A stretch of DNA of 51,743 nt, filler included, from Jimgerdemannia flammicorona (taxonomy: Eukaryota), in assembly GCA_003990765.1 (NCBI GenBank). It is 2 parts of 2 records of this genome, joined end to end, with 100 filler letters (N's around TTAATTAATTAA, not from the genome) between each part and the next. Parts side by side here need not be neighbours in the genome. Positions count along the whole stretch, not along the records: positions 1 to 25,822 come from RBNJ01000784.1; 1 more part is not named here. The stretch is one strand, 5' to 3'. Below are positions 1 to 48,836 of the stretch, in pieces. The notes below the pieces were generated by a model. It made no database searches and was not told the DNA's origin. It worked only from the letters and a program-made list of their open reading frames with translations. The stretch's first letter is position 1; each line of letters starts with the position of its first letter. The position numbers and the translations under genes are program-made.

Positions 1-93
1 TTTTTTTTGGAGGGGGGCTATTTTCCAGACGTCTAGTTGTCATCATCTACGGCATATTAAAATCTATCCGATCCGCATCGTCCCCACCAACAG

Positions 94-3106: not shown

Positions 3107-6100
3107 TCATCCCTCTCCCACAACCCCAACCCTTCGTCTTGCCTCCCTCCCATTCCCCTCCACCCCCTCCTCTATCTGTACATCATCTTCTTTTCCTTCC
3201 TCAGTACTACCTCTTCCCACACCATCCCCACTTCCATCCCTATGGCCTACTGCTGCTCCTCCCACTTTCCCTCTCTCCTCCTGCCTCGTCAAATTTCCAG
3301 TCACCACCGCGGTCGCGGTCGCTGTCGATGCCCCAACGCTCCTAAACCCGACCTCCAGCAGCTCCCTCACCTTAGCCAAGAACACGGCCGCGGCATCCTC
3401 AGGCACGTAGAGGTTCGCGCTGATCGAATCTAGCAACTTGTCGAGTCGTGTAAGGGTCTCGCCGCGGCGGTAGGGTTCGGTCAGATCGACGCGGCTGTTG
3501 AGCAAGCGAAGCAATGAATTCACTATTCTCATGCGGCGAAGCAGAAGGTTGAGGAGAAAAGGGGAATGGACGTACTGTTCATATCCGCGGTAATCCCGGA
3601 CCAGTTCCGAGAGCTGAACGAAGAGTTCGGGCGGAATGCGGTCGGAACGGGTGATGTCGCGGTCGCAGGCGTACGGTGTTCCTGTCGCCGTCAATGAGAG
3701 AGAACATTGTATCAAACGCCTTTGACTGAAAGAAATGTATCGAAGTAACGAAGATGCGACAATAAAAGATAAATAATGAAAATTGACACACACGGTATCC
3801 ACCATCCTCATTCCACCGTGCACTGATGGACAAGTACTGCACCCGTGACTGGTTCGACGGATGCCGCGGGTCGTAAGGGCTCACAATCACACCAATGAAT
3901 GGTTCCACGCCCGTATCTCGGCGAAACAGCGCCTACATTCGAGATAGACGCCAACGAAGATATGAGATTTGCATTACATTCTCCTCCTCCCCTTAACAGC
4001 ATCGCCACAAGATCAAACCGCACACCTCCGTATCACACGCAAAAGCACGACTACCTGATATGCCGACTGATTCTCAATATCCCTCACGCTCGGGTTTGGC
4101 TCGAAGGTGGGATGGGAGTGGTACCAACCCACGACAACAAGACCGCGCTCAGCGAAGACCTCACGGGCTTGCATCTCGGAGGCCGGATCCATCTCGCACT
4201 GGATGCCCGTACTCAGACTGCGGCAGGGGAACGCCGCGACGACGTAGAGTACGCAGCGGTCCGGGTCGTACGTGCCACCGAGGAGGCCGATGATTTCGGT
4301 GTGGGCGAGGTGGGAGTGGAAGTCCATGACGAGCTGGGAGGATGTAGCGTTAGAATCGGTTTGAAAGTCACAATGGAGGCATAATGTCGGGCCCTCAACG
4401 AAAATCACATACCACGACATCCGACAGAACAGCGACCCTGAAGGGTGCCGGCTCCCTCGCCGTATAATGCTTCATGGGGATCAAAAGGAACGGGTCGTAT
4501 GCGCCGTCTGCACCACCGTGATGACGATGATGGTTCGCGCCTTGTGACGATGATATCGCCTGCTGTCGCTTGAGATAGAACTGCGCGCGTTTGTGTTTCG
4601 GTATCTTGGTGTTGACTGATCAAGATGGCGAGACAGATTAACATACGGACCGCGCACAGAATGAGTCCCAGGACACAATTCGTACCATCGACCAAGATAA
4701 CTTGCCGAACTATCGCATACCCGTACCCACCAGGTATCTCTCCCGGCGCAAAGTGCCTCGCATTCTGTGCGGCCAGCCTCTCCTGTTCATATAGCTCCTG
4801 CAGCTCCTCCTTGGTCATACCTCCGAGCTCGTCGTCGTCGCCCTGGGCGGCGCCGTTCTCGTGCGAGATGACGCGGCCCTCGAGTTCCTTGGGGTCAACC
4901 CTGAATTGACCGCGCATAGGCCAAGTTAGAATAGATGCGCATGAGTCGCCAATGAGACGAATACAACTGGAAGTCAAAACATCAACCTACCACTCGCCAT
5001 ACTCGTTTCGTACGCGTCTTCGACGAGGTCTTCAATGTGTTTCAAGTTCAGCAATAGGATTCATAAGCTATCTGGCCAAGATTTCCATCTCGACCACCAT
5101 CAACACAAACACAAAAACCGACCCCCAGCTTACACAGTTCAACCCTGACATCAATACCCACCCGTCATACTCAGCAATCCACGCAGGCATCTCGACGTCC
5201 GCCTCTTCATCCTCCTCCTCGCTCCTCTCATCCGCTTTACGACGCACGGCCGGCCGCTTGGGCTTCGGTGGGGTGGTGATGCACCCGACGTTAATGGCGC
5301 CAACGCGCTCAAGGTAGGTGTGCACGCGCCCGATGGCGTTGACGTCACCGCAGTCCTGGCGTGACGAGCAAGCCGGGTAAGAGTCATGGCATGGATGTAC
5401 GCACCCGAGGAATTTCACGTCCACCCACCTTTAAGCCGGGCCTGATGCTCGTCTTTGTCAGGTACCTCGGCCTACACCTCGCCCACGCGCCGAGGATGTA
5501 GTTGCGGATCTTGGCGTACCGCTCGGGTGTCTTGGGGTGTTTCCCGACGAACCATTCGGAATTGTCACGGCGTTCCTCGGCGGTCACCGTTGTTTGATCG
5601 AGAATCTTGAAGTGTGGACGCGAGAAGGAGGGCATGCGCACAACGAATGCGGGAGTTAGTGGGGCCTGTCGGATTTATCCAGTAGAAGAGAATCAAGAAA
5701 CAAGTTCCGGCAAGAAAGATCCACAATATACCTTCTCCTGCGCCGACCTTCGAGTCCCAAGCCCACCATCCTCGCTCTCGTCCGCGTCCTCGTCCTCTTC
5801 GGCCTCGTCCCCTCCCACCCTCCCCTTCGCATCCACATTGTCCTTCGCTTCTCCAATCACCTCCCGCGCACCGCCGTGAAACCTCCCAGAATGTCCACCC
5901 TCTCTCACCACTGTCTCTTCCACATTCGCCCGCCCGCCACCAATTGCATCCTCATCCACCACGCGTACGACGCCCATCGAATCGACCACCCCACGCATAT
6001 CACCCTTGTCACCTTCGCCAGTGACAAAGCTGGCTGGCGCCGGCGACGTCGTCGTCACCTCTTCACGGATCGTTTGTCCCTGGACGTTCGCACACACGTC

Positions 6101-7826
6101 GCCATCGCTCTTCCCCCTCCCTTCCTCTGCCTCAGTTAGCATTTCCATCTCCATCTCGGTCTTCAATACTGCCTCTGTCTCCCTACCTCGCCCAACCTCT
6201 TCCTCATCATCAATAAATTTCGTCCTCACCCCCCCGAAACTCACCGTCCTCCCTCTCTTCGGTGGCGTGTCCCCAACAGCACCACCCACAATCTCCACCT
6301 TCACAAAACCCTCCACTTCCTCTGCCCTCTCCTCCTCCTCCCTCCCTCCTCTCTTCTTCACCCTTCCCGACCCCGCAAACGGTGATGGCGACCGTGATCC
6401 GCTCGCTGCGAGCCCAGTCCGCAGCTGCTCCGGTTCCGATTCTGGGGACGGCGACGCATTGTTAACAAGCATCTCGTACACACGGTCGGCGCCAACAGTA
6501 CGTGACCACCGACCCGGAGCGAGAGATGCGGAGATAGACGCCGAAGCGGGGGAGGATCGGTCGTCGTCGCTGTCGACGTCGATGTCAATGGAAATGTCCG
6601 AGTCATCCGTGTCCGCATCGGCGGCGGCGGCGGGAAAGGGTTTCGGAGCGGACGGGTCAGCGGATGAGGTCTCCAGCGCCAACTTGGCCGCCTCGCCCGC
6701 CTCACCCGCCTCGCCCACCACACCCACCCGATCCACCGTGCCTCCAACCCCCTCCGCCATCATCTCCTCAACCACATACTCTGTCGACCCCGGTGTACCG
6801 GCTCTGCCGTAAGCGTCGTCCTCTCCGCCACTCTCGGAGGTGCCGTGTTTACGCTTAAGACGCGAGGAAGACGCGGAAGAGGAGGGCGTGCCGCCCGGAG
6901 TGGTCTTGCGGCGTTTGGACTCGTCTCCTGAGTCGTGGGAGGAGGATCGGCGCAGGTTGTTGGGTGAGAGGGGAGCGGGAGCGGGAGCAGGAGCAGAGGT
7001 GAAGTCAGGAGCGACATCGTCATCGATCTGGATGGGAGAGGGTGGATTAAGAAAAGTTTTTGTTATGAAGGACTTTGCAATTGTTGATAGAGAATGAATT
7101 TGTTATCAGGACGTGGCGTTCGAATGTACCTTATCCGAGACCAGCAAATGTCGAGCATGATTCTTGCATTGTAACGGGTTGCGCGTCCCCACGACGCCTG
7201 CAATAACTTTCCAATTGCCATATCCGTGGCGTTTCTGAAGAATGAACGATAGTGAATATGTGCTTAAAGAAATCGGTAACGCAATTCTATAGGACATGCC
7301 AGTAAATGCCGAAAAATTCGTCCAGGATATGTGCGCCGCGCCCGTACGTACCAACCCGTCACGAAGCCTCTCGTCTTCCTCGGGAGTCCAGCGCGTGTTG
7401 TGCGAGGGGAGGTCGGCTGACGAGAGTTTTGTTTTCTCCGCTGCTGCTAAATGCGATGATAGAAGGTGACGCACGGCATTGTATATCAAGAAGTTGAATT
7501 CGTGATTTCGTTCATTTGCTGCCAAAACGCAACCCTAATTAGCTCCCAATCTACGCCTCACCTTCATTCTGCAACCGTCTCCTCGCCTTTGCACCCCCAC
7601 CCCCGCTTTTGCTACTCCCCGCATCCTCCTCATCGGCTCCCCTCCTCCTCTTGCTTGCCGAATCCTTTTCCCTGCCGCCCGCCCTCTTCCCGGTCGCAGC
7701 CCCAGCCCGGGACGACGCATGCCCCTGTACGACCTCGAACCCCCCAAAGCTCGCAGACCGCCCGCCAAAGTAGTAGTCTTCCTCAGCGAGCATCTGCTCG
7801 ATCAACGCGCGGGACTGGTCGTCCAT
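3107..7826 (-). CDS. MYSM1: MYSM1-type histone H2A deubiquitinase (Myb/SANT + SWIRM + MPN+/JAMM), about 13 exons
   Basis: N-terminus [64 protein letters not shown] (7446-7130). [19 protein letters not shown]...[34 protein letters not shown] (5665-5290). Linker [31 protein letters not shown]...[20 protein letters not shown]...[16 protein letters not shown] (about 4500-4055). All introns GT-AG and in phase; last exon 3494-3107. Confidence 0.92.
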
Positions 7827-11994: not shown

Positions 11995-14572
11995 ATGGAG
12001 CTGATTTCAAAACCGATAGACGCGATATCGCTGGCACCCTCGTCGATACTTGGCGACATGGGGTTGGGCAACAATTTCAACGAGGAAGATGTGCTACCGT
12101 TCCTGCTACAAGCGCAGGACGTCATCGCAAAGTTCGAGTCGAGAGTCGTGGAGCTGGAGAAGGATTTGTCGGTGCGTAAATAACGCCTGGTGGGCGTGGT
12201 ATTTGGTGATCGGAATAGAGGTGTGAGAAAAGAGGAAGAGAGGGGGGCAGAGAAGGAGGGGAACCGTATAAACATAACAAGAGGTACCGGCAGCGAGTTC
12301 GGATGCCGCTTTGTTTGCTTTACTGTCAAATTTCTCACAAATTTGTTTATTCTTTTTCATTTTCTCCATCACCCCCACGCTTTGTCCCCCTCATTCCTTT
12401 GTTTGGCCACGAATTATTCCGAATCCACAGACGATCAGCCGAGCATACGAGCACGACCGCAACGAGTGGCTGACAGGGCTGTCACAAAAGGACTTTTACA
12501 TCCACCACCTGTCGAAAAAGCTCCAGCGACTCGAGTTCAGCAACAAGGAGGCCATCGTGGTGCTCTCGGATATCCAACCGCGGCCCAACATGTTCAGCGA
12601 GGCCCGATCGACCGTCTTTGACGAGTACGAGACCAAAATCGCCGGCAAGATCAACCTGGCGCTAGACTACCTAAAGAATGCGCAGAACACGGCACCGCCC
12701 AACGATGACATCGCCGTCATCGATCACGAGGACGAGGAGTATGAGGAGGGCGAGCTGGAGCGGCGACAGGCGGCGACGAACACATGGCGCAGACGTGAGT
12801 CCGTCATCAGCGTGGCGGACTCCATGCTGAGTCACAAGATCATGATGGGCTTGGTTAAGCAGCGTGCTGAGTCCATCCACTTCCGTGACGACGTCACCGA
12901 CCTTGACTTTGACCTCGACGACACGGAGCTCGATGTTGATGATCTCGGCTACCGCGAGAGCATCGACGAGTCCTCTAGCTCCCGCCAGACCGACGTCGAC
13001 TCCCTCCGCATTGACACCCGCACCGCACTTTCCACCATCACCGCCGCCTCTTCCGCCTCCCCCATCGAGGACGAGAACCATCACCACCACCACCACCACC
13101 ACCACCACGACGACGACTACTTTACGACCCACACACAGCCCGCTCCCTCCTCCGTCGCGAATGGCAGTCCAGCCATGGTCATGAAGCCCCCGGGCACGGC
13201 ATTCTGTCCCAACTGCCGCCAACTCCTGTCCCAGCTGGACCAGCAGATTGAGCAGAAGGCCTACCTCAAACGTGACATGTCCTCGCTCGCCGCAAACCTC
13301 GCGGAGGAGCAGGAGTTGCGCGTCAATATCGAGCACGCCAAGGAGCTTCTCGAGACCGATGTCGACGAGCTCGTCTCCGCAATGTTCGATCTTGTCAATC
13401 GTACCATCATGGACGAGGCTGAAGCATCCGCTAGCGGCGTCGCCGGCAACCGCGACGTCCGCGAGGGCCGCCTGCACGACATGAAGACCATCCTCGTTGA
13501 GCTCGACTCCGCAAAGCGTCGCGCCACGAATGTATCAAGCCTCAACGTGCAGAGCGGCAACGGCTCGAACGCCAGCATCAGAAACGGCTCCGTCACAGCC
13601 GGAAGTATCTTCAGCTTTGGCGCGTCCAAGCGACTCAGCTTCGGCGGCATCGCAGGAATACCCGCAACTCCACAGCGGCTTAGCAGCTGCTCTTCCGTCC
13701 GTACGTCCATCTCAGGTGGAGGTTCGTCCCACCCAGAAGACTTTTGGGGCACCCCGCAGCGACACGTGTACGTGGACGGGCTCGGCTTTGCAGAATTCCA
13801 GGAGCACATCAAGACCGTCCTGGGTCACAGTTCGACCGTCACCGCGTACATGAAGCGCGTTCTCGTCGAGGACGTTGAGCCCACCTTGTTCCAGACCGGA
13901 ACGCAAACGTGGTGGAAGAGCCCCTGGTTCAAGCGGAAGCTCATCGACGCCATCGCGAGAAACTGCTGCGAGATCCAGACTTACCGCACTTCGACCTCAA
14001 CCCCATCCCCATCTAGCTCCCGCCCGGCAACTCCAACAACCCCAACAGTACCGACCTCCCCTGTTCCGGCCCCTAAAACAAAATGCGCCTCATGCGGCTC
14101 TCTCCGCCTGTGCGAATACCGCATGCGCATCACATCACCTGACCCACGAAACCCAACCGCCGATCCGCTCACCCTCGCCGGCGCCGCTGCAGGCCGCGCA
14201 CCATGGCTACCAATTGACCGCTTCTGTCGTGACCGCCTCGTGGCTGTGTGCGACTTCTACACGTTCCTCTCCCACCTTCGACAGGGCTTACTGTCCCATT
14301 CTCCCGTCCTGGCCCTCTACAAGCAGAGCCTGTATTACCGCCGCAAAATGGGCCTGTCCCGCGTAGGGTCCATGGGACTGTTTGGCGAGGACGCCGATAA
14401 GGGCTGGGATCATACCGGTGGACAGCAGCAGGTGGGGCCGAAGAGGGGATCGTTGGTGATGACGAATGGGGCCAACAGCGGAACTGGCGAGTCTGCGCCA
14501 GCGAGTTTGGTCAATGTTGGAGTTGGGGGGAATGGGTGGGAGACGAGCGGGACCATCGTTATTGTGCATTAA
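11995..14572 (+). CDS. Sec2/Rabin8-like Rab GEF family protein, about 772 aa, 2 exons
   Basis: Exon 11995-12171, phase-0 intron 12172-12430 (GTGCGT...CACAG), exon 12431-14572. Coiled coil with a Sec2-like segment LETDVDELVSAMFDLVNRTI. Sec2/Rabin8-type C-terminus: YMKRVLVEDVEPTL...KCASCGSLRLCEYRMRI...PIDRFCRDRLVAVCDFYTFLSHLRQGL. His10 tract at 13079-13108. Confidence 0.8.
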
Positions 14573-16013
14573 GGCGCATGAAGTGTAATGATGTTTATTG
14601 TTGACCGCAGAAGAGATACATGTACATCCTTGTCGGGCGAAGTCCGCGCTCGCTCGCTCGCGCTCTTCGTGTTTCATAGAGAACATTTTGGGACACTTTA
14701 TTGTTGTTTGTTTTGCTTTGTCCCCTCCCTCCCCCCCTCCCTCCCCCCCTCCCTCCCTCTCTCCCTCCCTCCCTCTCTTCCTCCCTCTCCCGCTCTCTCT
14801 TTTCTCTTTACTTACATATATATTATAATACTCCTCCGCGTTTGGGGGTGGTATGATACCCATCCTCCTCCTCCTTACCCCCACCCCTTCTTGTAGTCTT
14901 TTGCCCTCGCGCGAGCGATCCCTTTCTCTGTTTTCGTCCTCTCTTCGACTGTACACTGTCTATCAAACCTGTCGCATAGTGATTTTCGTTTGCTTTTTCT
15001 GCCTTGCTTGCTTTTCGTGTACTTCGTCCCCCACCTCTCCCTCTCCCTTCTTTCTTTGTAAATTAGCACCACACTCGGGGGGACTGGTCTTCGTGCTCGA
15101 CCCGTCACTCTGAGGGGAAAGATTGCGCTTGGGACTCGCTCGCTCTGCTGTTACCCATCTCTATACTACATATACCTGGCTGGCCCTTGAGCTCGTTTGG
15201 TCTTGTGGGGCTGGGAGATTGTGTACCGCGCCTCGTGGAGAAGATGCGTTGATGAACAATGCTGGATGCTGATTGACGTGACAACGGTTTCTGAGCTTAT
15301 TTGTTGGCTGTGTCGCTCGTTCGTAACCTGACATTATTATTTGTACGCTTTTCTCTTTGACTCTCTATTTTCGAGCTTGTTTTCTCTGTTATTTTGGTTT
15401 TTTTTTCGGGCGCCGACCCTCTGTATGTATGTACCTTGGGATGTAAATCTGCTGGGCCGTTGTTGTGAACATTACTTTTCTTTTTTTCTTTTTTGGTTGT
15501 ATTTTCTTTCTTCTCCTTTCAGTGACTAATAATACATATACTCGTCGCCAAACCATTTTTAACTTTGGAAAAAAAAAAAAAAAATCTTGTGGCTTGCAAA
15601 GCCTCATATCACCTCGGAGATCAATGCAGTTCCGCTCAACGAATCGGCTCGGTCTTGGGGTCATTTTTGCCTTGTCCTCGGCCTTAAATTTTGAGGCTCC
15701 TGAAACTCTTATTGACGCTTTCCCAGGATCCAGAATCAGGAAATATTCGGCACATCTCGGGTGTGGATGGATTAAGCATTGGCATAATTCGGTGCGACCA
15801 CCACGTGAAAGGGGACTTGATGGCGTTGATTGTCGTGTGGGTTACGGAGGTCATGGGTCGATTATGAAACCATTAATGAGAAATGTGTCGTTACGTACAT
15901 TATTTCCATATCAGTCTGTCCCCGCATTCTTCCCCACCTCACGCGACCTCCTTACAAGGCGCAGCCCCTGAAAAACTTAAACCAACCTCCTCACACAAGA
16001 CTTTGACAAAACA

Positions 16014-17581
16014 ATGGTCGCCCCGCCACAATCCGCACCCCCTTCCGATAACGACCTCGTCCCCTCGGGCGTCCTGCTCCGCTGGTCCACCCCCGCCGAC
16101 GGCGTCCACCTCGCCTCCTTGTGCGAGGCCGTCTTCTGCGAGAACGAGCCCAGGTTCGTCGGCTCCAAACGCGCCCAGGTCGCGAGGTTGATGCATGGCG
16201 ACCATCCCATGATGGCCCCTGGCGACGTTGCTATCGCTGTCGATGAAAGGTTGAGGGAGAGAGGGGAGAACCCTGTCGTCTCGTGTGTCTGTCTCGTTAC
16301 CCAGGATGTTATGTATGATGGCGTCGAGTTTAAACTGGGGAGGCCGGAAAATGTCGCGACGCGGAGGGAATATAGGAGGAGGGGGTTGGTCAGGAGATTG
16401 ATGGATATCGTGCATGCTAGGTGTGAGGCGGAGGGGATTCTGGTATTGGTGAGAGATCCCCCCCCCCCCTTTTTTTGTTATTGTTGTCGTTGTAATGTTG
16501 TAATTTTTGGAGAAAGGTTTGGGTTGTGTGTTGCGTTCCAAGTTTCGTCATAACACTTTATCAAGCAATCCATCACTGATCATTCAGTCCATCATAGGCC
16601 ATCGCGGGTATCCACCACTTCTACCGCCAATTCGGCTACGAATACGCGCTCTCCCTCGGCGGCCAACGCACGACCCTCATCTCCATGCTTCCACCCCTTA
16701 AACCCAACACCCTTGAACCCTACACCCTCCGCTCCGCGACCGCGACCGACACCCCGCTTATCCGCCAGCTCATTGAAGACTCCGAATCCAAGCACATGGT
16801 CCGCACACTTATCTCTACTTCCACCTGGCTCTACTATCTGCAACAACCCCCTTCGAAACCCAAAAACCTGTGGGACATCCACGTCGTCATTGACACCGCT
16901 ACACTCAAACCGTGCGGTGCACTCGCCATCTGGTCCCCGCGGTGGTACGACGCCATCGATGTCAAGTTCATCGAACTCCTCCGCAACGTCCCGCTCCAGA
17001 TCGCACTCCCCTCAATCGCCCGCCAGATCCTCCAACTCTCAACACCACAAACAGCGGTCCCACCAGATCCGCTCACGCAAATCATATGGTCCCTCGGCCC
17101 AACTCACCGCGTCTACGATGTACTCAATCGACCAGGCACATACCCGCTCGCCGCCGTCGCAACGCCCCCGTACGCGTGGTACGTTCGCATCCCGAGCCTC
17201 GCCCGGTTTCTCATGCACGTCGCCCCCGCACTTGAGCGGCGCCTCGCCGCTTCGGACTGCCACCGCAATTACACCGGCGAGCTCCGCGTGCACTTCTACG
17301 CCGCGCCGGGGTTCCGGCTCGAGTTTGGGGCTGGGAGGGTCGTGCGCGCCGACGAGTTCCGCGTCAATTACACCGACGCAAAGTCTCCCGTTGAGGCGGC
17401 CAACGTTGCGGATGCGAGGTTTCCACCGATGGTGTTTTGGAAATGCGTGCTCGGGTATCGGAGCGTTGAGGAGGTGTTGCATATGTATCCGGATGCGGGT
17501 ATCATGAGGGTTGAGGCGATAGGGCTGCTGGAGACGTTGTTCCCCAAGAGAGAGTCGTGTTTGCGGGGGTTGTATATGTGA
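16014..17581 (+). CDS. Eis-like GNAT N-acetyltransferase, about 472 aa, 2 exons
   Basis: Exon 16014-16448, phase-0 intron 16449-16597, exon 16598-17581. Acetyl-CoA motif A GRPENVATRREYRRRGLVRRLM, then AIAGIHHFYRQFGYEYAL. C-terminal YAWYVRIPSLARFL...FPPMVFWKCVLGYRS...LLETLFPK resembles the end of Eis-type enzymes. Confidence 0.85.
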
Positions 17582-18323
17582 TGGGAATGGGCAGACACGG
17601 GGGGTCAGGTGCTAGGCAAGAAAAAAAAATCGATGGATTTGGGTTGAACTTGTACATAGCCATTTTTTTTTTTTTTTTTTTTGGGAAAATAAAACATAAA
17701 CATAAAAATGGATTGGGTGCTGGTTTACATAAAGCCGGCCACAGCGTTTGACAGTATTTGTGGAGAATCCACGCCTCTGCCCGTCAACACCGATGACACT
17801 AGTGGCATGCGATATTAAAAGCAAAACGGAACGCGCGACCTTGACATCGTTTTCCGCGCCCGAAAACATCGCGCACATTGCTTGTACACGGGCGTTATTG
17901 ATTTGTTGGGTGAGGGGCGTTTGGTGTCGCGAACGCGAGCAAGGCTGGTTAGAGCTTTTTGGTTGGGCGCTTTTTGCTTGGCCGTGTTTTGGGTTCAAGG
18001 CTCAACTGTCTCGCTATTGTGAGGTTCTGGGGCCCGTTCGCACGGGCAAAGTCTTGGGTTTGAGACCGTTTGTATTGTACGAAGTGAGGTGAACTCCCCA
18101 AAAGAGGTTTGTAATGTGTGTCATTTTATTGGATTTTTATTGACATTCATGCTCGCAATTCCTTTTTCATATTCCGTTTCGGTCAAGGGTATCTATGTTC
18201 TCGCCGGTCGCCCTTTTCAAGTACCCTAGTCCTGACAGATGCCGAAACGAATAACACGCGGGTGAATGGCAAGCGCGTCACTCGTGTAAAAGGAAGGTTC
18301 GGTATGGCCATGTGGGGTATATA

Positions 18324-18704
18324 TCATACCTTGTAGGCTTTGTTGTAATCGTGCTTGTAGCCGTATTTGTAGTCATGCGGATAATAGTCGTAGTCGTACT
18401 TGTAGTTGTGCGGGTAATAGTCGTCGCCGTGCTTGTAGTTGTAGGGGCAATAGTCGTAGTCGTACTTGTAGCTGTACTTGTAGCCGTACTTGTGCGGGTA
18501 ATAGTCATAGCCGTACTTGTAGCCGTACTTGTGCGGGTAATAATCATAGTCGTACTTGTAGCCGTACTTGTGCGTGTAATAGTTATGGTCGTACTTGTAG
18601 TCGTGCGGATAATAGTCATCGCCTTTGCGCTTGACGAGGGGGTTGGCCAAAGCGCCCTGAAGGGCGAGGGCCGTGGCTAGGATGGAGGTGATGAGCTTGG
18701 CCAT
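18324..18704 (-). CDS. Secreted Tyr/Asp/Lys/His-rich tandem-repeat protein (126 aa precursor)
   Basis: ATG at 18704 after an A-run. Signal peptide MAKLITSILATALALQGALA, propeptide NPLVKR, then 100 aa of (D)YYPHxYxYK-type repeats. A possible terminal intron 18329-18232 (GTATGA...CAG) would only change the last residue V to D (stop at 18226-18228). Confidence 0.85.
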   Translation of the reverse strand: MAKLITSILATALALQGALANPLVKRKGDDYYPHDYKYDHNYYTHKYGYKYDYDYYPHKYGYKYGYDYYPHKYGYKYSYKYDYDYCPYNYKHGDDYYPHNYKYDYDYYPHDYKYGYKHDYNKAYKV

Positions 18705-18799
18705 TTTTTTTTTTTTTTCTAGATGTCGAGGGTGTTGTAAGGTATAATTTGATGGATATGTGTGTGCTTGATGAGGGTTGAGAGTTAGTGAAGGCGGGC

Positions 18800-18807
18800 T
18801 TTTTATA
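18800..18807 (-). promoter_or_regulatory. TATA box of the Tyr-rich gene
   Basis: TATAAAAA on the minus strand about 100 nt upstream of the ATG at 18704. Confidence 0.55.
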
Positions 18808-19421: not shown

Positions 19422-19483
19422 CCGTGACATAGGGACAGATGTAAACAGCCAGCCGTGACATAGGGACAGATGTAAACAGCCAG
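19422..19483 (+). repeat. Perfect 31-bp tandem duplication in a promoter/5'UTR
   Basis: ccgtgacatagggacagatgtaaacagccag twice, ending 40 nt before the ATG at 19524. Confidence 0.95.
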
Positions 19484-19523
19484 GCAGCAGCCACCGAATT
19501 AGAACCAAGAACACCTTGCAGCC

Positions 19524-20276
19524 ATGGCACAATCCAAACGCACAACATATCGGTCCAACAACTTCCGTCCACACCCTTACTCCTTCTCTCAACAACAGCA
19601 GCCTGAATACCCTTATCCACACTCCTACTATTCACTGGAGCAACAAGCACCCAAACCCGTTCCCCCCGCTGCCCCATCCTCCGACGACAATGTCGTCGTC
19701 TTCTTCACCTGCAAATGGGACAACTGCAACGCCCTCTTTCGTATGTTCCAAGACCTGAAAAACCACGTCATAGACCACCTCGAGCTGGTCAACTTGCACG
19801 CGAAAGGGAGCTTCCCGTCCGACGATTCCTCCCTAGACACAGGGCGGCCTAAACAGCCCATCAACGAATCGCCGCCGCCGCCGTCGTCGTCATCGTCGTC
19901 GCCGGCGCCAGTTAGGCTGGTATATCAAGAAAGTGATGAGCCATGCAGCGTCTGCGCGTCGGAATTTGGTGTCCCGGTTGGTATTTCTACTATCTTATCC
20001 GGTTTCGGGTGGGCGGTTCGGTACGATTCTCATCTTTGCCACACCCACAGGATAACGCGATAGTCACATGCGACAGCTGCGGAATGGTATATCATCAGGT
20101 TCGTCCCTCCAATCCGTCCTCCTTCTGTGCGGTCGCATCCGTTTTACTTGAATCCAACGCCTCCCCTTCCCTCAAAAAATGATATTCAACAGAAATGCCA
20201 CTGCCCGCCCATCTCCGCTCGAGACAGCGAGATGGTGTGGCTCTGCGCCGAATGCAACGCCGCCGTCGCGAGCTGA
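19524..20276 (+). CDS. Small C2H2 zinc finger + PHD finger protein (about 194 aa, 3 exons)
   Basis: Exons 19524-19976, 20051-20098, 20193-20276 with phase-0 GT-AG introns. C2H2: FTCKWDNCNALFRMFQDLKNHVIDH. Complete C4HC3 PHD: CSVC...|DNAIVTCDSCGMVYHQ|KCHCPPI...WLCAEC. Confidence 0.88.
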
Positions 20277-21808: not shown

Positions 21809-21937
21809 ATGAAATTTGCCGCTTTTCTCACCCTTGCCCCCGTCGTCGTCGCGTCCTCCGTCATCGAGTTCTCCATCGCCGAGTCCAACTGCTGTTTATG
21901 TGCACTTCAGGGGGTCGGACCGGCTCCAGGTAGGTAG
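21809..21937 (+). CDS. Candidate small secreted Cys-containing protein (first exon or relic)
   Basis: GCCATG start, signal-like MKFAAFLTLAPVVVASSV, then NCCLC. TATAAAA at 21713-21719. Possible donor GTAGGT at about 21930; no downstream exon identified. Confidence 0.3.
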   Translation: MKFAAFLTLAPVVVASSVIEFSIAESNCCLCALQGVGPAPGR

Positions 21938-22745: not shown

Positions 22746-23209
22746 GCATGAGGAAACTTGTCGGTGGGAAAATTCTTACCCAGCCCACGGCTCCCAGTTA
22801 TACGGTGATGGTGCCGATCGTACAAATCTCGTCAGCGATCATTATGTCGTAGGAGAAAGTTCCTGGAAGATGATGCAAGTATACTCATGGCGTTGATGTT
22901 GCGCGATCGTCATAGAGTGTTTGTTTGTAGATTAATCAAGAGGTTCACTGGGAAGGTTCGATTAAATAAATACGGTTGGCGAATAGCGCTTGGGCGGTCG
23001 CTCTTGCCGGTCTCGATGAGGAAGGGGACCCTCACGGTTACGGGCACTGCCACACCTGAGTTTGCGGCATCATGGCCAGCCAATCAGGGCGACGGCAAAA
23101 TTTTTCTTGCTGACTGTGAGGGTACACGCAACCCCCACAAAAGGCTCCTAAAATAGACTCCCCACTGCCCAACTACCACCACACCCTCTTTCTTTTCTGC
23201 TCTTCAACC

Positions 23210-25159
23210 ATGAAGACCTGTCGATCCAACGCCTGCTACTACTGCACCACCGCACTTCTCTCCGTCGCCATTATGGGCTTGCCCGCCGCCGTCCACGCAC
23301 AGACCACCGCAAACTCTTCGGAAGGTGAGTTTACTGCCTATGACTGTGAAATGTCCAAAAGCCCCTTGCCGAACGGCCACCGCGGATCATAACACCTACA
23401 GCCATTGCGACTGTGTACTCTCCCGCCACTCGTCGAAACCAACCATTCCCAGTTCCCACTGTGCATTCCACACCCTTCCTCATCAGCCAAACGCCCTCGC
23501 TTCTTGTCTCCCTTCTTATTTCGAAATTCAAACGAACACTCCCACGATCCACCAAACACCTTCCGCACCCATGACCTGATCCGATTTTCCTTTCCTCCCC
23601 CACTAGGCTCCCCGCTGCAGCCTGACCCATGCTCCGCCAACGACAGAGATGGATACGACCTTCCGCTGCACATCGCTTCCGTGTTCATCATCGCGCTCAC
23701 CTCCGCCTTGGGCGCTTTCACCCCGCTCGTAGCGTCGCGGTTCCCGGGGCTGAGAATACCGGACTCGTTCATTACTTTAGGTAAGTTCACGGCAGTGATT
23801 GGAACAGGGCGGGGTGATGACATTCTTAAGAAAATCATGGAAGATTGGATCAGGTGGACGACGATTTTGTGCTGGAATACCAAGGCGCTAGATACTTGTT
23901 CACGTCAACTCAGCTAACTCATTTATCTCACCCAACCTCCAGGCAAGCACTTCGGTACAGGCGTCATCCTCGCCACAGGATTTATTCACATGCTCCCCGC
24001 AGCCATGTCGAGCTTGACCTCGCCCTGCCTCTCCTCTGCCTGGACACAAGACTACCCCGTCTACGCGGCGCTCTTCGCCATGTTTGCCGCTCTCTTCATG
24101 CAGCTGACTGAGCAGCTCGCCTCCGAGAATGCCGAGAAGCGCCGTCGTATACTCCTGGAGAAGGAGCAAGACGCCGCTCAGCCTATCAGCAACGACGTAC
24201 CGGGGCCCGTCTTCCCGCAGCTTAAACATTCTCATGAGCACGAAAAGCATCGCCATAACCACGACCACGACCATCCAGACGAGGCAGACCTCACCTCCGT
24301 CACCACCAATGGCAATAACCCACACACTCCCACACATCCCGTCACGCCGCTTACGACGGTCTCCTCAGCCACCACTAGCGTCGCCCCCACTGCCGCCGCT
24401 AGGGCGAGAGTGGAGGATTATGCCGAGGACGTGGCAACGGATATTACCGTGTCGCATATCCATTCGCATCACACGCATACGCACTCGCGGGGTAATGATC
24501 ATTATCCGCATAACCATCACCATCACCATGCCCATCCGCATGGCGGACATAATCATGATCACGGGATTGTGTTCCTTGAAAATGAGCGCAAGAAGATTTC
24601 GACCTATATCCTTGAGGTCGGCGTCGCCACCCATTCGGTCATCATTGGTATCGCCCTCGGCGTCAGCTCTAAGAACGAGTTCACGGGTCTGCTCATCGCG
24701 CTCGTATTCCACCAGTTCTTCGAAGGTATATATATATTAAGCATATTTTCATATACAATGCCGTCCATCATTCCCTTCAACTCATACTCACCCTTCCCGG
24801 TCCCTCTTCCTTCCATAGGCTTTGCCCTCGGCGCGCGCATCGCGGAAGTATATACGCGCTCGGTCCTGGCTGCCTTCATGTCGCTCATCTACGTCTTGAC
24901 AACTCCGCTGGGTATTGCCATCGGCATCGGCATCTCCTCTACCTATAACCCGAACTCCACCACTGCGCTGCTCACACAGGGTATCTTCGACTCCATTTCC
25001 GCGGGTATCCTGCTCTACATGGCGTTTGTCAACCTCATCGCTATAGAGTTCACACAGAACATGCGCATGCACGAGCTTGGTACCCGTACCAAGGTTTCTT
25101 ATTATCTCGCCATGTATAGCGGTGCGGCAATTATGGCGTTGATTGGGAGATGGGCGTAG
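23210..25159 (+). CDS. ZIP-family (Zrt/Irt-like) zinc/iron transporter with signal-peptide-like N-terminus and His-rich loop, 4 exons
   Basis: Exons 23210-23324, 23607-23780, 23943-24725, 24819-25159 with phase-1 GT-AG introns. Motifs YDLPLHIASVFII, GKHFGTGVILATGFIHMLP, ILEVGVATHSVIIGIALG, FHQFFEG|FALG, TTPLGIAIG, DSISAGILLY. Two His clusters in the TM3-TM4 loop. Confidence 0.95.
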
Positions 25160-25822: not shown

Positions 25823-25922
25823 NNNNNNNNNNNNNNNNNNNNNNNNNNNNNNNNNNNNNNNNNNNNTTAATTAATTAANNNNNNNNNNNNNNNNNNNNNN
25901 NNNNNNNNNNNNNNNNNNNNNN
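25823..25922. other. Artificial 100-nt assembly spacer
   Basis: N-run enclosing TTAATTAATTAA (25867-25878), which gives stops in all six frames and is a standard contig-joining linker. Confidence 0.95.
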
Positions 25923-28900
25923 TTTTTATAGTCACTTGGACTCCTTCCTTTATTAATACACCCTTCACTTCTTTATATAATAACTGTGCCCACCCCTACC
26001 TGATCCCCCTAGGGGCCCCCCTCTCCCCCACTCTCTCTCAATGAAAGACCACTCTGTCATTCACCATCTCCACCTGTCCACCACTTTGTTCACATATCCC
26101 TTCCACTAGAGGCAATGTCTCCTACCCTGGGGACCCCAACCAACTCACCACCTAGTCAGCAAATCCCCCATCAACTCCTCTCATCTAGACAACTTCTCCT
26201 GCATATCTATCTGCTGTCCCTCCTCAAAAATAAAGAGCCAATATCCAGCCAGCCCTACTCATACTGCTAAAACCCACTCTACAGTGAGCCACCCATTGCC
26301 TACACCACCTACTAACCTAGTTTTCAAATCCTCCCATTGACCTCTCTCTCCATCCAGCCTCCTTTCCACACCCAGCCAGTCTCCTGCTGCTATCCAAAGG
26401 TCCCCCAGAATCTCACACTCTTTTAGCCAATGTTCTGGTGTCTGCACATAACCCTCAACTTGTCCAACATTACAGCACTCCTCACAATCATATCAGCCAC
26501 CATCCACCAGATGTCCAGTATGGAAATTTAACATGACATTCCTCTGCAGCATCTGCCACCAGATCACTCAGAACTTGGGAGGAAGCCACCTCCACACCAC
26601 AGCACTCTATGACCAGACTCTTGCCCAGTCTCACTCCTCACCAATCCTCACTGCCTGCCAACCACTTGGCCAAATATCCTGACCAAGACTCTGCTGATAC
26701 TCTACCCCATCACAAATATCAAATTCAGTAAGCAGAACACCCCCCAGAAGTAGTCTGTCCTATTGCCACATAGCAGGTCTTCACAGTATCTCCCCCTCAT
26801 TACTTTACCAGTGCAGGCCAATTCAGTGTGCTCCATCCACCACTCCCCACCAGAAGCCCTTATACCTTAGCCTACAGCTTCCATCCATACCCACCAGAGA
26901 TAGCAAATATCCTGAGAACCCTCATGGGAAGAATCTCATCTCCCACATCTTCTGCATCAGCAGCACCCAATTCCTTTCCTTCAAATCAACAGTCCTTTTC
27001 AACTACCATGCTCACAGACAGTGTAGCCTCTTAGGAAGGTCCACTAGACCTAGCCCTCCCTGAACCACCAGTGTTACCAGAGTGTCCCAACTGATCTGGG
27101 CCCATCTCCCTGCCCAAATCTAGTCTCTCCAAGCTATCTCCTCTTCATTTCTCTGCGAACGAATTCCAATACAGTATACTCCCTCCACTACCCCCCACCA
27201 GAAGCCTTTGTATCTCAATTGTGCAGTGTTCTGAAGCCCAATCAAGGATAGGAGATCTCCTGTCGAGCCTTATGGTAAGGACCTCATCTCCCAGACCTTC
27301 TGCAATAGGGGAACTCAACTACCCCCTCTCAACTCTACTGCTCTCTTTAACCACAATGCTCTCAAACAATATGGTTTCTTCAGAAAGTCAACCAGGCCAA
27401 TTCTGCCTCTTGCCACCAGTAAGGATAAGACCTTCCAACTGATCTGACTCCTCCTTCCAGTCCAGATCCACTCCTTGGCCAGCTTCATCAATCTCTTTAC
27501 CACCCAGGCTGAGAAGTCCAGATGATAAGCCAGATACCACAACTTCAGCAGCCAATAGATGTTCAAAATCAAGACACACCTGCTAGAGATAAGTGGTGAC
27601 CCCCCCAACTCTGCAGGGTCTCCCCCTGGATTCCAACCCTCTGCTCCCACCAAAGTCTAGATAGGACTAACCCATACACTAATAAATAAATACCCAAGTA
27701 CCATACTACCTCACCAGTAGGGATGATTGTTCCAATGATGTCGCCTCCCACTAGGCCATTACCTAACACTATAGTTTCACACTTGTGCCAATTGAGTTTA
27801 GCCCCAGAGTTCTCCTCATATCACTCTACTATCTCCTTGAGCTCCTCAACATCAGCGATTTATCCCAGGCTGACCACCATATTATCTGCAAAGGCCCCAA
27901 CTTTCCACCCAATTCCAAAGATGGAGAGCCCAACTATCTTCCACCTAATTCTGTCCATTAGGGGTTCTAGAGAAAGAGCATACAGAATGGGGGACAGTGG
28001 GTCTCCCTGGGGTATACCCCTATCCAGGGGAAATGACACCCCTCTATGTCTATTATACATGAGTGCAGCCCTACTCCCTTCCAGTAGGCTGATCATTGCT
28101 GACCAGAACTGGGGTGGTACCCCAGTCCTATCCAATACTTTTACCAGCCAGACTCTGCACACCTGGTCATAAGCCTTCTCCTGGTCCAAGAAGACCAGTC
28201 ACCCATCTAGTCCACAAGCTCATACTCCTTCAATAACTCCATACACCTATGCTGTAACATCCCTAATGAGCCAGCCTCCTACAAAGCCCCTGTGCTCAAC
28301 ACACAAGACTTGCTGTGCCACCTTCTGTAGTCTTGCAACCACTATCTTAGTCATCAACTTTCTGTCCATATCTAGCAGCATAATCAGCTGCCAGTTCTTC
28401 CAGTCCTCTCACCTCCCTTTGTTCTTATAAAGCAATATCACCAGCTCCAGATCCTGCTCCCCCACCCATCTCTCTGTCTGTAGTATAAATTGCACAATGC
28501 TATCATCTCATCTAGTACTTCTGGGATCCCCACCATCTTCTTCCAGAAGTCTCAGGGCAGACCATCCTTCCCAGGTGCCATACCCAGTGTTGTTGTGGCA
28601 AGAACCTGGTGGATCTCTTTCTCTTGTATAGGCAACACCAAGTCACCCAGCCTGTCTACTTGTGGGGGGTACCAATTGTCTAATACCCAGTCAATTGCAG
28701 TAACATTAGCCCCACCCTTCTCCTTACTCCATAATCCACTCTATCACTTCTTCAATGATCCAAGAATGTCTTGTATACCATGTACCAGTATACCATCAGA
28801 GTTAAGCACCCCCTCCCACCTTTGTTATACTCTTCTTACCCAAAGGGCTCTCATGAGATACTTTGAGGGCCTCTCTCCTTCCTCCAAACCCTGCCAACAA

Positions 28901-31900
28901 AGATATGCTACCAAACTCTATACCCTTGCCTCTTCCTCTTCTCTCAGCATCAGTTGTAATTCTCCCACCTCTATTTTTGCCCTCATTAATCTCCAATCCT
29001 CTCCCCCCTCCAATGCTGCTAGCTCTGCCCAATCCTCTAAGAGTCTAGTCAGTCTAACTGAAGCTCATTACACCTGGTGCCTCCTCTGCCTCCCAGCCTC
29101 CTTACCAGCCTTGCTCCAGTAGACTATGGCCATCTCTTTCATCCTCATCTACTAAACACCCACTGGGGCACCCTCCTACCTCCAGCTCCCCACCCTCAGT
29201 TGAATGTCTTCAGCCCACTCATCCCACTGAATCCTATCATCTAATAAAGAGGAATTGAGGTGCCAATATCCAGGCCCATCTCCACATCCCCCAAAATACC
29301 TCTGTTCTAACAGCCCCCAATAATCTGACCATAGAAACCATTCTACCTCCAGCGACTTCCAAACATCTAAGCCCCAGCAGCTAGCTGTCAAAATCTAGTC
29401 AATCCTCATCCCCAAGCCCCCTGCCCAATGTGTGTATATCCTTCTATCCCCCCAACTCTCCTGATCAGTATTCACCAGAGCACTTAGCCTTTCCACTTTC
29501 TCCCATGCCACCAGCCCTCCACTCCTACTCTCAGCTCTCCATCCTCTATCTGTTGTATCCATCAGTATGTTCCAGACCATATTGAAGTCTCCACCAAGCA
29601 TATCCACCTCAGCCTCTACAAGGACCCCACTCTCTAGGAGACCCTTCATCTAATCCACATACTCACCCCATACAGCAGGGTAGTAACAGGAGCCCACTAT
29701 AACTGGCTCTCAACCTGTATGTATCCACTCTCCCCAGACCAATCTATCTCCCCAGCTCCTCATATCCTGTATCTCCCCTCTCTCTTTCCAGACCAGAATC
29801 CCAACCTTGCCCCTCCAAACTGCCTCACCTCCCCATTCCTTTGTCCATTCCAGCCTATCCAAATTATTCTCACACCTAACATCCTGCAAGAGGAAGAGAT
29901 TGGCCTCCAATCCCTTCAGCCAAGTAAAAATGTTCCTATGTCAAGAAGTACCCTGCAACCCATTCATGTTTAAAGAAAAAATATTAGTTGCCCTATTCAT
30001 AATGAAATACAGTATGTTATCAAGTCCATCCCTACTGCTCCATGATTATCTCTTCCTGTGCTATGTCTAGATTATGTTTCGCAGCCTTTAGCCCTCTGAG
30101 CCTCCAATCCAACCAACAGCTCATTCATCTCCCCATCTGCCTTCTCCTCAAACTCCTCCCAGTGCTCCAGACAGACCTCCTGTCAGAGCTACAATTCATG
30201 TTGCTTATTCCAGCAGTATTTAGCCCTCTCACTAGCGACACCTGCCAGCTCTGCCACTCACTCCTTATCTACTTCATACCCTTCCTCCTCCAGATACACC
30301 ACAAGGATTTTCATCTTCAATGCCATCATCACTCCATCCCCCTGCAGGATCTGCACCCAATGCTCATCAATCATTACTCTTAGGTCCACCTCTCCCAACT
30401 CTTCAGCTGCTAGATTATTCATTATCTTATACATCCAAAGTAGGTTCCCCACCTCCTTCCCTCCAGGAGTTGCTGGCCTCCCACCTTTCAGTATCATAGT
30501 ATCAGCCCTAGTACTTACAGACTCATCCTACACCTCTGGGATATCCACCAGTACCTCCTCTACAACTTCCACCACTTGTCCCCCATTCACCACCTCTAGA
30601 ACTCCAAATTGCACTCGCTGGGCCCCCTGCATTGGCATATCCTCTGCCACCCTGCTTTGGGAAGCTTGATCTTACCTGATAAGAGGAATAGGGGTAGGCA
30701 AGTCCTCCCAGGCCTCCTCTCAGACCTCAAACATACCATCTGCATATGAGTTATTGCCAGTCTCCTCACTGTTCTTTCCTGTCTCCTTCCCTGCACTCCC
30801 ACCACCATTGCTGGCCCAGACACTCACTTTGGCACCCCCCACCTCCACCATTCCTCCTGTATCCTTCTGTGGTCTACCCTCCAGCTTAGCCAGTAACTCC
30901 TTCTGTCTCTTATGTCTCTGAGCTCTTTCCCACTGCCTCTTGTCCACTTGAATCTATTTTCCATCCACCACCTCTAAGTACATCAACTCCACAAAAGCCT
31001 TCCAAGCCTTCACCCACTACTCAACAGTATCACTCAGCTCTTTCAGTACTTCTAATAAGTCTTCTTCCTCCTCCTCACTCCCCTTTACCCTTGTCACCTT
31101 GCACAAGATTGCCCCCCAGATGATCACCAAAGGCCAGTTTCTTGCCTTCCCAGTAGCTTCCTTCCCTGGCAGCCTAATCCTCACATCAACATCCCCAGTC
31201 CTGAGCGAGGTCCTTTCCCAGACTCTGAATCCAATATCCACTACCTCTCCATACTCCACCATGACCTCCTCAACTCTCCTTCTCATCTCCACCATCATCA
31301 CCATGGGCACCCCTTTCACCAGCAGTTATATCACCCTGGGGTCCCATCTCAGGTACTATGCCATTAGAACACACACCTCCCCAACCATCAATCCAGTCTT
31401 CAGCACCTCCTCCAAAGGCCCATCCTCCTCAAAGCCTATCTCCACTCTCTCCAATCTCTTCAGAAACTTTACTGACACTGCTCCAGCCACCTGCTTAGCA
31501 ATAAGCCCCAGTACCATTTTCACCATCACTGCTAGGCCTCAGAAGCACAGTGTAACCATGAATGCTGAGATTGATTCTTTGAGTAATGGGGCCACTGCCA
31601 TGCTCATTATACCATCTGTCAAATCCCCCTGCCTTCCAAGTCCCAGCTGCTCAGCTGTGCCATCAGTAGTCATATCTGGATTTTTTTCCAGATTGGTAGT
31701 CCCATCACTATCAGCCATCATACTCCCCCCAGCCACTACACCCCCAGTTCTACTGCCCCCACCACTAAGGGCTACTCCCCCATGTACTACTATCTTCCCC
31801 ATCTCCTTGCCTTTCCTCAGCCACCCCTCCAGCCCAGATGCCTGCTGTCTCTCCATCATTGTCTCTACAAAGGTCACTCTCCCAGACCCCTGTCTACCAC

Positions 31901-32130
31901 CACTGCCCCATCCCCTTCCACATCCTCCTGCCAGCAGCCCATACTACCTCCCAGGCCAGGACCTCTCCCCACATGCTACCAGTCGAATACACTTAGGCCA
32001 CCCTGCCCCATATACACCTCAGATTGCCTGTCAGTTGCTATGTTGCTAGTCTCTTTCTCCAAAAACGATGTTGTAAGTACTTTCCAAAGGTTGTGTAACC
32101 TGAATGGTACTGGAGAGAGGCCTGGTCGAT
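25923..32130 (-). mobile_element. Full-length degenerate L1/Tx1-like non-LTR retrotransposon (copy 1)
   Basis: ORF1 relics at about 31900-30050 (RRM-like VVDIGFRVWERTSLRTGDVDVRIRL). APE endonuclease: MNGLQG, LLQDV, LGGDFN, WSDY, WHLNSSLL. RT: DQEKAYD, GIPQGDPLSP, GAFADN, YLGI. C-terminal CxxC/H/C region; ends AAGTGACTAT+polyA at the contig edge. Many stops. Confidence 0.92.
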
Positions 32131-33165
32131 GAAGAGTTTCTCTTGCTTCTTCTTTAAGAATATGGTGAGCTTTGCAATTCTGAAAGCTATAGTTTAAGGT
32201 GGTCTTGGTCCTGGTATGGTGAAAGTCAGTAGAGTTGAGCCACTTGGTCATAAAGGCTTGGTCTTCATAAGGAACTAAGGCTAGAAAGACTGCTGCTGGT
32301 TGTCCTATGTTGCTCAGATTTGTAGAGCTGACAAAACTCTTGTTGAGGAGAATAAAGAAGACTTCTATAAGACCTTCTTCATCTTGACTTGCAGGGTGTA
32401 GAGAAAGGAGTTCAATGAATAGAGTTTCACCTATCTGCTAATTTAATTGGAGTACTTCTTTCTTTGAATAAAGTCTGTCCCACTTATTGCAGGTGTGGAG
32501 GTCAAATTGTCATTATACATCAGGTTCAATTTTCTTCAGATTATTAGATGGTTTGGAATAAATTCCAGTTCAGAGGTTTGGCTTTATACCAACTTGTAAG
32601 AATTCTTAGAGAGGTTTGTAGTAAAGTGAGAAAGCATCTTGAAGTAGAATTGGATTACAAACTGCTGCTACCAAGTTGAAAGAGGGTTACTTGTTAAGGT
32701 AACCATTACATAGTTCTAGAAGGGTTTTCTAGAAGTTCTGGATATTCTGAAAGACTGATTACTTAAGGTCAAGATCAATTTCATATAGAGTATGTCCTCT
32801 ATGTTTATTGATTTCAAGAACAGATTGACATCTTAACCAAAGTCCCTTTTTGGACTAGTTCTAGATATTCCAGATTTTCTGTATTTCAGGACATTTAAGA
32901 AACTAAGGCCAGCTTAGTTAAATTAGCATATTACTACAGATAATACCCAATTAGGAAATTTCGTGATGGAGCTAGAACTGGGACCTAACAGAGAGTAGAT
33001 TTACTTAAGAGTGGTTTGTGGGTTATTAAAAAGATTTATTCACCATTCATAATATTACTATACTAGAAGTAGTTGTGTAAAGAGATATTGTGGGGAAGTG
33101 CTCAGGAGTTGTATTCAGATTTTTTAAGTCTGAGATTCTGAGGTCCAGGAGAGGGGGTATTTATA
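32131..33165 (-). mobile_element. Decayed host element (probably LTR-retroelement 5' region) interrupted by both LINEs
   Basis: Minus-strand TATAAATA at about 33165, AATAAA downstream, then a broken ORF-like stretch. CpG-depleted; continues at 38968 across the TSD. No diagnostic gag/pol motif seen. Confidence 0.35.
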
Positions 33166-38951: not shown

Positions 38952-38967
38952 AGAGGGGGTATTTATA

Positions 38968-40800: not shown

Positions 40801-40857
40801 TTTGCTAGCTATATATAAGGTGGCTAAGTTATAAGTCACTTTTCACAAGTATTAATC

Positions 40858-48654: not shown

Positions 48655-48836
48655 GATATTTCGATTATTCATAAGCTATATTTCAATTGTTTATAATGTT
48701 GGATAAGTTAGAATATTGACTGATAATTTATCTGAAGCATCTAGGGGTTATGGCAAGAATGTTAACACTATCCAGAATTAGAGGGCCTCTTTCTGAAGAA
48801 AGATATTGAGATGGTTGGGCAGATATAGTTCTCATT

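Follow-up and report, generated by a model that had tools for sequence, protein, structure and literature searches.

The subject of this analysis is a single open reading frame (ORF) within a stretch of DNA of 51,743 nucleotides (nt), hereafter the window, from Jimgerdemannia flammicorona (GenBank assembly GCA_003990765.1), which joins two parts of this genome with filler and takes positions 1 to 25,822 from RBNJ01000784.1. The ORF comprises 126 codons on the minus strand (18704..18324; ATG at 18704, TGA at 18326..18324) and is probably a real protein-coding gene. Its predicted product carries a signal-peptide-like head and a single Kex2-type site, followed by a chain of 100 amino acids (aa) of which 39 are tyrosine. 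The favored reading, which is held tentatively, is that of a lineage-restricted J. flammicorona gene for a disordered, pH-switchable and oxidatively cross-linkable matrix or wall protein.

The Tyrosine-Rich ORF and Its Predicted Product

A first-pass annotation of the window had placed a secreted, tyrosine-rich repeat protein of fungal origin at 18324..18704. The ORF was recovered at exactly this position, on the minus strand and with a length of 126 aa. The origin also holds, J. flammicorona being an early-diverging, ectomycorrhizal fungus of the Endogonales (Mucoromycotina), and the neighboring ZIP protein matches that species. Sequence, gene anatomy, composition and charge curve are established directly. 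The features of the locus, all on the minus strand, are:

18800..18807: TATA box TATAAAAA, 96-103 nt 5' of the ATG (read from the sequence; enrichment versus shuffles)
18705..18799: presumed 5' leader without ATG, closing with 14 A that abut the start codon (read by eye)
18645..18704: signal-peptide-like residues 1-20, with MAK, a hydrophobic core and ALA before NP (translation and crude n/h/c-region rule)
18627..18644: propeptide NPLVKR, residues 21-26, ending at the sole Kex2-type dibasic site (translation, dibasic scan)
18327..18626: Tyr-rich mature chain, residues 27-126, with 100 residues in 7 YYPH-type units (translation, unit parsing)
18357..18604: tandem-repeat DNA core, with 33-bp and 39-bp periods on a 6-nt Tyr-X step (tandem-repeat search)
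18324..18326: stop codon TGA, with AAG/GTATGA as the final codons (read from the sequence)
18141..18136 and 18130..18125: two AATAAA, candidate poly(A) signals, 183-201 nt past the stop (read from the sequence)

The head of the protein was evaluated with a rough signal-peptide rule, which requires a basic n-region, 10 uncharged core residues whose hydropathy averages 1.9 or more, and small side chains at positions -3 and -1. It passes this rule, which over the whole window admits only 3 of the 294 in-frame ATGs followed by 60 or more open codons, and the short propeptide behind it ends in KR, in agreement with the signal peptide and single KR site proposed at the outset. Dibasic residues of the 126-aa protein are confined to K25-R26-K27 and none occurs within the 100-aa repeat region; with one dibasic site in all, the protein is not a classic KEX2-processed repeat precursor, as had been stated.

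The composition of the mature chain matches the initial count to the residue (Y39, K15, D15, H9, G7 and P6), the remainder being N4 and one each of T, S, C, A and V. The roughly seven imperfect repeats with alternating tyrosine that had been described correspond to seven units, which open on YY(P/T)H or YCPY and measure 11, 13, 13, 17, 11, 11 and 20 aa; the alternate placement of Tyr gives rise to 21 overlapping YxY motifs, including 7 YKY, 7 YDY and 5 YGY. The chain is strongly hydrophilic (grand average of hydropathy -2.1) with an isoelectric point of 7.3-7.8, one Cys, zero N-glycosylation sites and almost no Ser or Thr. Its computed net charge falls from +15.7 at pH 4 and +9.8 at pH 5 to +2.1 at pH 7 and +0.5 at pH 7.5; Lys and Asp are balanced (K15/D15), as noted before.

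A single-sequence AlphaFold2 prediction returned two short strands at a mean predicted local distance difference test score of 42.6 and a predicted template modeling score of 0.18; as expected, such a low-confidence model is what a disordered or unpredictable chain would yield. Modeling of self-association with four copies of residues 27-126 scored 0.01 against a mark of 0.32 and weighs neither way. A glycosylphosphatidylinositol (GPI) signal, a Pir repeat and an eight-Cys pattern are absent (GPI and Pir assessed by eye; zero Pfam matches). With one Cys, a polar C-terminus (...HDYNKAYKV) and hardly any Ser or Thr, the chain can be neither a hydrophobin nor a disulfide-knotted effector nor a wall protein of the GPI or Pir type.

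Search for Relatives

The protein had been presented as lacking any recognizable family, and this stands: 0 Pfam families matched at E ≤10, and matches in protein collections were spurious. A word-indexed search across 5.8 billion clusters yielded 88 candidates, 0 of them at E ≤0.01. Its sole match at E ≤10, P0123 (109 aa, E 0.072), was rejected as kin; its Tyr-rich tail is presumably the C-terminus of a bacterial tyrosine kinase. Among 1.84 billion representative proteins, phmmer retrieved a single match, P0002 (1196 aa, with GDDSVPHDSSYAV repeats), which was likewise rejected, its 71 bits being the sum of eight weak stretches of which the best reaches 22 bits. This match reflects shared periodicity and not kinship. 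A self-match would reach 257 bits in HMMER, so its bias handling is not concealing relatives.

In the feature search of the ESM Atlas, the whole protein scored 0.79 at best, under the lead threshold, and residues 27-126 had no match. A scan of bacterial and archaeal genomes returned 76 pattern matches with 0 confirmed relatives, and tblastn combined with a Tyr-frame scan inside the window found zero paralogues. Mimicry of plant sulfated peptides (DY motif) was dropped, as no match extends beyond the dipeptide. Because the main protein collection lacks this gene, its orthologues in sister genomes could have escaped annotation likewise. In the literature, a full-text search covering few subscription journals turned up no paper in which 'tyrosine-rich' goes together with Mucoromycota, nor one in which it goes together with mycorrhiza and small secreted proteins, and a search of the same coverage on fungal Tyr-rich wall proteins returned non-fungal cases only. 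Orphan, repeat-bearing small secreted proteins are common in mycorrhizal fungi.

Gene Layout

The case for a gene is argued from the layout around the ORF and not from the openness of its frame. The TATAAAAA box occurs 8 times in the window versus 2.07 expected from shuffles, and another of these copies, at 11905 on the plus strand, stands just ahead of the Sec2/Rabin8 ORF. Between the box and the start codon extends the ATG-free leader, whose terminal A stretch appears in the tandem-repeat search as a T run at 18704-18718 on the plus strand; an alternative reading of 197 aa from an ATG at 18917 begins upstream of the box. The GC content at third codon positions (GC3) is 0.82, favoring TAC, AAG, GAC, CAC and GGC, a bias in the same direction as in the neighboring genes (GC3 0.63-0.75). 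In addition, the ESM Atlas contains the identical 126-aa protein, letter for letter, so some gene-calling pipeline produced exactly this model. The TATA box, the ATG-free leader, the signal-like head, the KR site, the stop codon and the two AATAAA together make an accidental origin unlikely.

A Cross-Linkable Structural Protein as the Favored Reading

We infer secretion, processing, assembly, cross-linking and location as follows. The pre-pro-protein would enter the secretory pathway, where the 20-residue signal peptide and then, by cleavage at the single KR, the 6-residue propeptide would be lost, and the mature form would leave the cell as a Cys-poor, unglycosylated and disordered chain of ~13 kDa. 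Because Lys and Asp would cancel while the nine His titrate around pH 6-7, the chain should carry a strong positive charge (about +10 at pH 5) and be soluble in acid, and should have almost no net charge at pH 7.5-8. Close to neutrality, the 39 Tyr may make the chain self-associate by way of aromatic, cation-pi and hydrogen-bond contacts. Phenol oxidases or peroxidases could then fix the chain in the extracellular matrix or wall, either by dityrosine and isodityrosine formation at the 21 YxY motifs or by adducts of 3,4-dihydroxyphenylalanine (DOPA)-quinone to Lys and His. Possible sites include the hyphal mantle, the gleba of the sporophore and the zygosporangial wall. A gleba that is solid, a well-developed hyphal mantle of the zygosporangium and an ectomycorrhizal habit are described for the host (PMC5729711), and the host biology would therefore fit a glue. 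In its most specific form, the proposal is that Endogonales make a glue of the mussel or eggshell type, which arose de novo from a hexamer repeat, condenses above the His pKa and is subsequently tanned by phenol oxidases into the matrix that would bind mantle, gleba or zygosporangial wall; this version is unlikely.

Animals, plants, coccidia and diatoms use Tyr-rich cross-linkable proteins as materials, and secreted Tyr-rich low-complexity structural precursors are a kind already known outside fungi. If the glue reading were true, the product would be the first structural protein reported from fungi that is based on Tyr and cured by oxidation, would extend the cross-link chemistry to fungal tissues and would be a candidate for what binds sporophores and mantles in an early-diverging mycorrhizal lineage. 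The balance of Lys and Asp together with His may offer a simple natural template for pH-switchable peptide materials. The ORF could also stand as a clean case of gene birth from a coding-compatible minisatellite; if unexpressed, it would merely be an ORF on a repeat.

Alternative Explanations

Several observations weigh against the favored reading. Its functional part draws on composition and analogy only, and the features that usually anchor fungal wall proteins (a Ser/Thr-rich region, a GPI signal and Pir repeats) are absent from the Tyr-rich chain. A neighborhood scan with Pfam, applied to the 289 stop-to-stop ORFs of at least 70 aa in the 51.7-kb window at E ≤0.01, detected no phenol oxidase, laccase or peroxidase gene. 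The AAG/GTATGA at the end of the ORF also resembles a 5' splice site and could be a splice donor. The exact protein is missing from a collection of 15 billion proteins that does include the ZIP protein of the same contig, and hence at least one public annotation did not call the ORF. A homologue was found in none of the searches of protein collections, the Atlas, and bacterial and archaeal genomes, which leaves purifying selection without support. According to the window ORF list, the array can be read without a stop in four of the six frames, so an open frame by itself is no evidence of a gene. Comparison of the first 8 codons of all unit pairs counted 21 synonymous versus 52 non-synonymous differences (40/18/49 by codon position), in units that are young and whose NAC codons interconvert, and a synonymous excess is not clear.

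The open frames, the missing homologue and the absence from the large collection also speak for a young or non-functional ORF, that is, a hexamer (TAC-NAC/AAG) minisatellite that expanded beside a fortuitous start, would be translated seldom or not at all or would lack a selected function, and represents a proto-gene or gene-call artefact; this is the main rival, although considered rather unlikely. The repeat DNA is the top-scoring tandem array of the window, with 3.4 copies of a 39-bp period at 92% identity, which marks the array as recent, and 3.6 copies of a 33-bp period at 82%; in favor of a gene, however, indels amount to 0% in both main arrays and every repeat period is divisible by 3. 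Within the mature chain, A occupies position 2 in 82 of 100 codons and C occupies position 3 in 62 of 100. As NAC codons stand for Tyr, Asp, His and Asn, and AAG for Lys, the odd make-up of the protein is the one that a degenerate TAC-NAC/AAG hexamer repeat would give, in effect a cryptic simple DNA repeat. The setting agrees with this explanation as well, as more than 77% of the host genome is reported as repeats (PMC10386755) and the locus borders a transposon-rich, AT-rich region. The signal-like head is harder to reconcile with it, given how few ATGs pass the rule, and so is a TATAAAAA box on the correct strand, 96 nt upstream and one of 8 in 51.7 kb. The same applies to the ATG-free leader, the KR directly past the signal peptide, the stop right after the repeats and the two AATAAA, whereas the other open frames (Thr/Ser-rich and Val-rich) lack a signal-like head.

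Improbable, although not negligible, is a soluble effector-like or metal-handling polypeptide, namely a His/Asp/Tyr metal scavenger that operates with the ZIP transporter or a symbiosis-stage small secreted protein that acts on the host or on hyphal aggregation. Fungal zincophores and their ZIP partners of the Pra1/Zrt1 type form divergently transcribed pairs. Here, 9 His and 15 Asp per 100 residues, a Zrt1-type ZIP gene ~4.2 kb from the start codon and a His-rich ZIP loop whose DHYPHNH resembles the unit DYYPHNY point toward metal handling, but a C2H2/PHD-like gene (19503-20270, plus strand) and ~2.6 kb of AT-rich DNA intervene and the two genes are not a divergent pair. Membership in a zincophore-ZIP pair was rejected, given the distance of ~4.2 kb, the gene between and the lack of family homology. 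Matches to a zinc-responsive element (yeast consensus) are not enriched (18 versus 25.7 expected), the resemblance to the ZIP loop at DNA level falls short of significance (24/35 nt, E 0.03 in a 400-nt target), and no Pfam match to a zincophore or metallophore family was obtained. For the symbiosis-stage variant, the host is described as ectomycorrhizal (PMC5729711), and Laccaria MiSSP8 is reported as required for mantle formation (10.1101/218131).

The adhesive, wall, amyloid-like and metal-binding options of the first-pass annotation form a reasonable set drawn from composition, and no evidence was found that tells them apart. The first-pass annotation had also kept a precursor of ribosomally made peptides with post-translational modification (RiPPs) among its options. 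A KEX2-processed repeat protein (KEP) or dikaritin-type RiPP precursor, in which Tyr would be cyclized or cross-linked after cleavage, would account for the combination of signal peptide, KR and Tyr-containing repeats, and Tyr is reported to be enriched in the repeats of KEPs with DUF3328 neighbors (PMC7329392). An N-terminal signal peptide is present by the heuristic rule, but repeats flanked by KR or RR are not: the sole dibasic site is N-terminal, so Kex2 would release no core peptides, and unit length varies from 11 to 20 aa, unlike repeated cores. The neighborhood scan found DUF3328/UstYa, tyrosinase, multicopper oxidase, peroxidase, P450 and methyltransferase domains in 0 of the 289 ORFs of the window at E ≤0.01. 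The RiPP option is thereby largely refuted and very improbable.

Comparison With Known Tyrosine-Rich Proteins

Compared with the known cases, which the chain resembles in make-up only, it is unrelated in sequence, richer in Tyr than the examples checked and charge-balanced instead of cationic; each step proposed for it has a precedent among them. The schistosome eggshell precursor p48 is described as 26% Tyr and 15% Gly and as cross-linked by tyrosinase (PMC3499410). Like it, further trematode eggshell precursors (Schistosoma p14 and Fasciola vitelline proteins) are secreted, repetitive, very Tyr-rich and of low complexity; relative to p48, the fungal chain has more Tyr (39% versus 26%) and less Gly (7%). 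There is no sequence relation to these proteins in the 1.84 billion representatives and no tyrosinase nearby. The Tyr/Asp/Lys/His/Gly palette of the trematode precursors is similar.

Among marine adhesives, DOPA is reported at up to 30 mol% in Mfp-5; mussel and sandcastle-worm proteins are described as stored in acid and set by a rise in pH and catechol oxidase, and mussel DOPA-rich and squid-beak proteins as acidic or pH-triggered coacervates that are then cured (PMC9999432). Mfp-3, Mfp-5 and sandcastle-worm cement are, from the same account, likewise small, secreted, disordered and rich in Tyr, Lys, Gly and His. The fungal chain shares with the DOPA-adhesive and quinone-tanned class the profile of a Tyr-rich, low-complexity protein with Lys and His (Y39, K15 and H9 per 100) behind a signal-like head, and homology to a known member was not found in Pfam or by phmmer among the representatives. 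Whereas mussel and sandcastle proteins are polycationic, this chain is balanced by 15 Asp and has no homology to them.

Processing recalls the coccidian oocyst wall, for which Tyr-rich pro-proteins are described as being cut by subtilisin-type proteases before dityrosine bonds link them into a resistant wall (PMC7389338). The subtilisin cut reported for the Eimeria GAM56/GAM82 type and Toxoplasma TyRP1 may be compared with the one site for Kex2, a subtilisin-family protease, before the Tyr-rich chain, and their resistant wall with the thick-walled zygospores that the fungus makes; the coccidian proteins are much larger, Tyr-rich in regions only and without homology to the fungal chain. Tyr-X-Tyr is reported as the cross-linking motif of extensins (PMC4275275, PMC4769139), and YxY is thus common to extensins, Tyr/Lys-rich plant wall proteins and the present chain (21 motifs, including 7 YKY). 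The Ser-Pro(3-5) blocks and hydroxyproline-glycosylation modules of extensins are absent from it, as it has one Ser and no Pro-Pro, and extensins belong to a different kingdom.

Among fungi, the hyphae of Laccaria, an ectomycorrhizal basidiomycete, are reported to require the repeat-bearing MiSSP8 in order to aggregate in mantle and fruiting body (10.1101/218131). MiSSP8, the Ustilago repellents and ustiloxin-type precursors are similar in combining a signal peptide, a Kex2 site and short repeats with a lineage-restricted distribution, and the host of MiSSP8 and J. flammicorona are both ectomycorrhizal. KEPs carry a dibasic site per repeat, while the Tyr-rich protein has one in all, no DUF3328 neighbor and an unrelated repeat chemistry.

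Genomic Neighborhood

The J. flammicorona genome, of ~240 Mb, is reported to have been obtained from field-collected fruiting bodies (PMC10386755). The Tyr-rich gene lies within the last gene-dense stretch ahead of a repeat-rich region. The following features were annotated around it:

3-314, plus strand: Kelch (Pfam)
1568-1900, minus strand: F-box (Pfam)
4016-7534, minus strand: Myb/SWIRM/JAB(MPN) gene, MYSM1 type (Pfam)
12278-14569, plus strand: Sec2/Rabin8 (Pfam)
15981-17578, plus strand: GNAT gene, Acetyltransf_9, E 4.8e-10 (Pfam)
19503-20270, plus strand: C2H2/PHD-like gene, with a weak Zap1_zf1-like match, E 6e-4, under the Pfam cut-off (Pfam and by eye)
22887-25156, plus strand: Zrt1-type ZIP zinc transporter gene with introns (Pfam; P0003 aligned exon by exon)
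27863-28198, minus strand: reverse-transcriptase fragment (Pfam)
50076-50924, plus strand: reverse-transcriptase ORF, RVT_1, E 4e-24 (Pfam)

In animals, the histone H2A deubiquitinase MYSM1 has the same combination of Myb, SWIRM and JAB/MPN domains. The GNAT gene is convergent with the Tyr-rich gene, their ends lying ~740 bp apart, and no functional link is seen. On the other side, the C2H2/PHD-like gene and the Tyr-rich gene have a common upstream region of ~0.8 kb and are transcribed in opposite directions. A PHD-like Cys/His pattern was recognized by eye past a likely intron of the 19503-20270 gene, and a perfect 31-bp x 2 tandem repeat is located at 19422-19483, just 5' of it. Between the C2H2/PHD-like and ZIP genes, a short ORF at 21809-21937 on the plus strand starts with MKFAAFLTLAPVVVASS, looks signal-peptide-like by eye and could represent exon 1 of a further small secreted protein.

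The ZIP ORF (23918-25156) is 92% and 89% identical to J. flammicorona proteins and 60% to a protein of Endogone sp. FLAS-F59071. The long His-rich loop of the transporter, HSHHTHTHSRGNDHYPHNHHHHHAHPHGGHNHDHG, varies in length between the two J. flammicorona proteins, the second of which, P0004, has 9 loop residues fewer than P0003. Within the loop (24470-24565), the CAC and TAC codons of DHYPHNH and DYYPHNY are one transition apart; the resemblance may be coincidence.

Two runs of 44 N occupy 25823-25866 and 25879-25922. Beyond them, over 26000-39000, the strands are extremely asymmetric, with a GC skew of about -0.5 from 26 to 32 kb and about +0.5 from 33 to 39 kb. A search for inverted pairs in this skewed stretch gave one weak pair only (124 nt, 71%), and the two skewed segments may be old, opposite copies of a strand-biased element. 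An AT-rich block with few ORFs follows at 39000-50000, with a GC content of 0.21-0.37.

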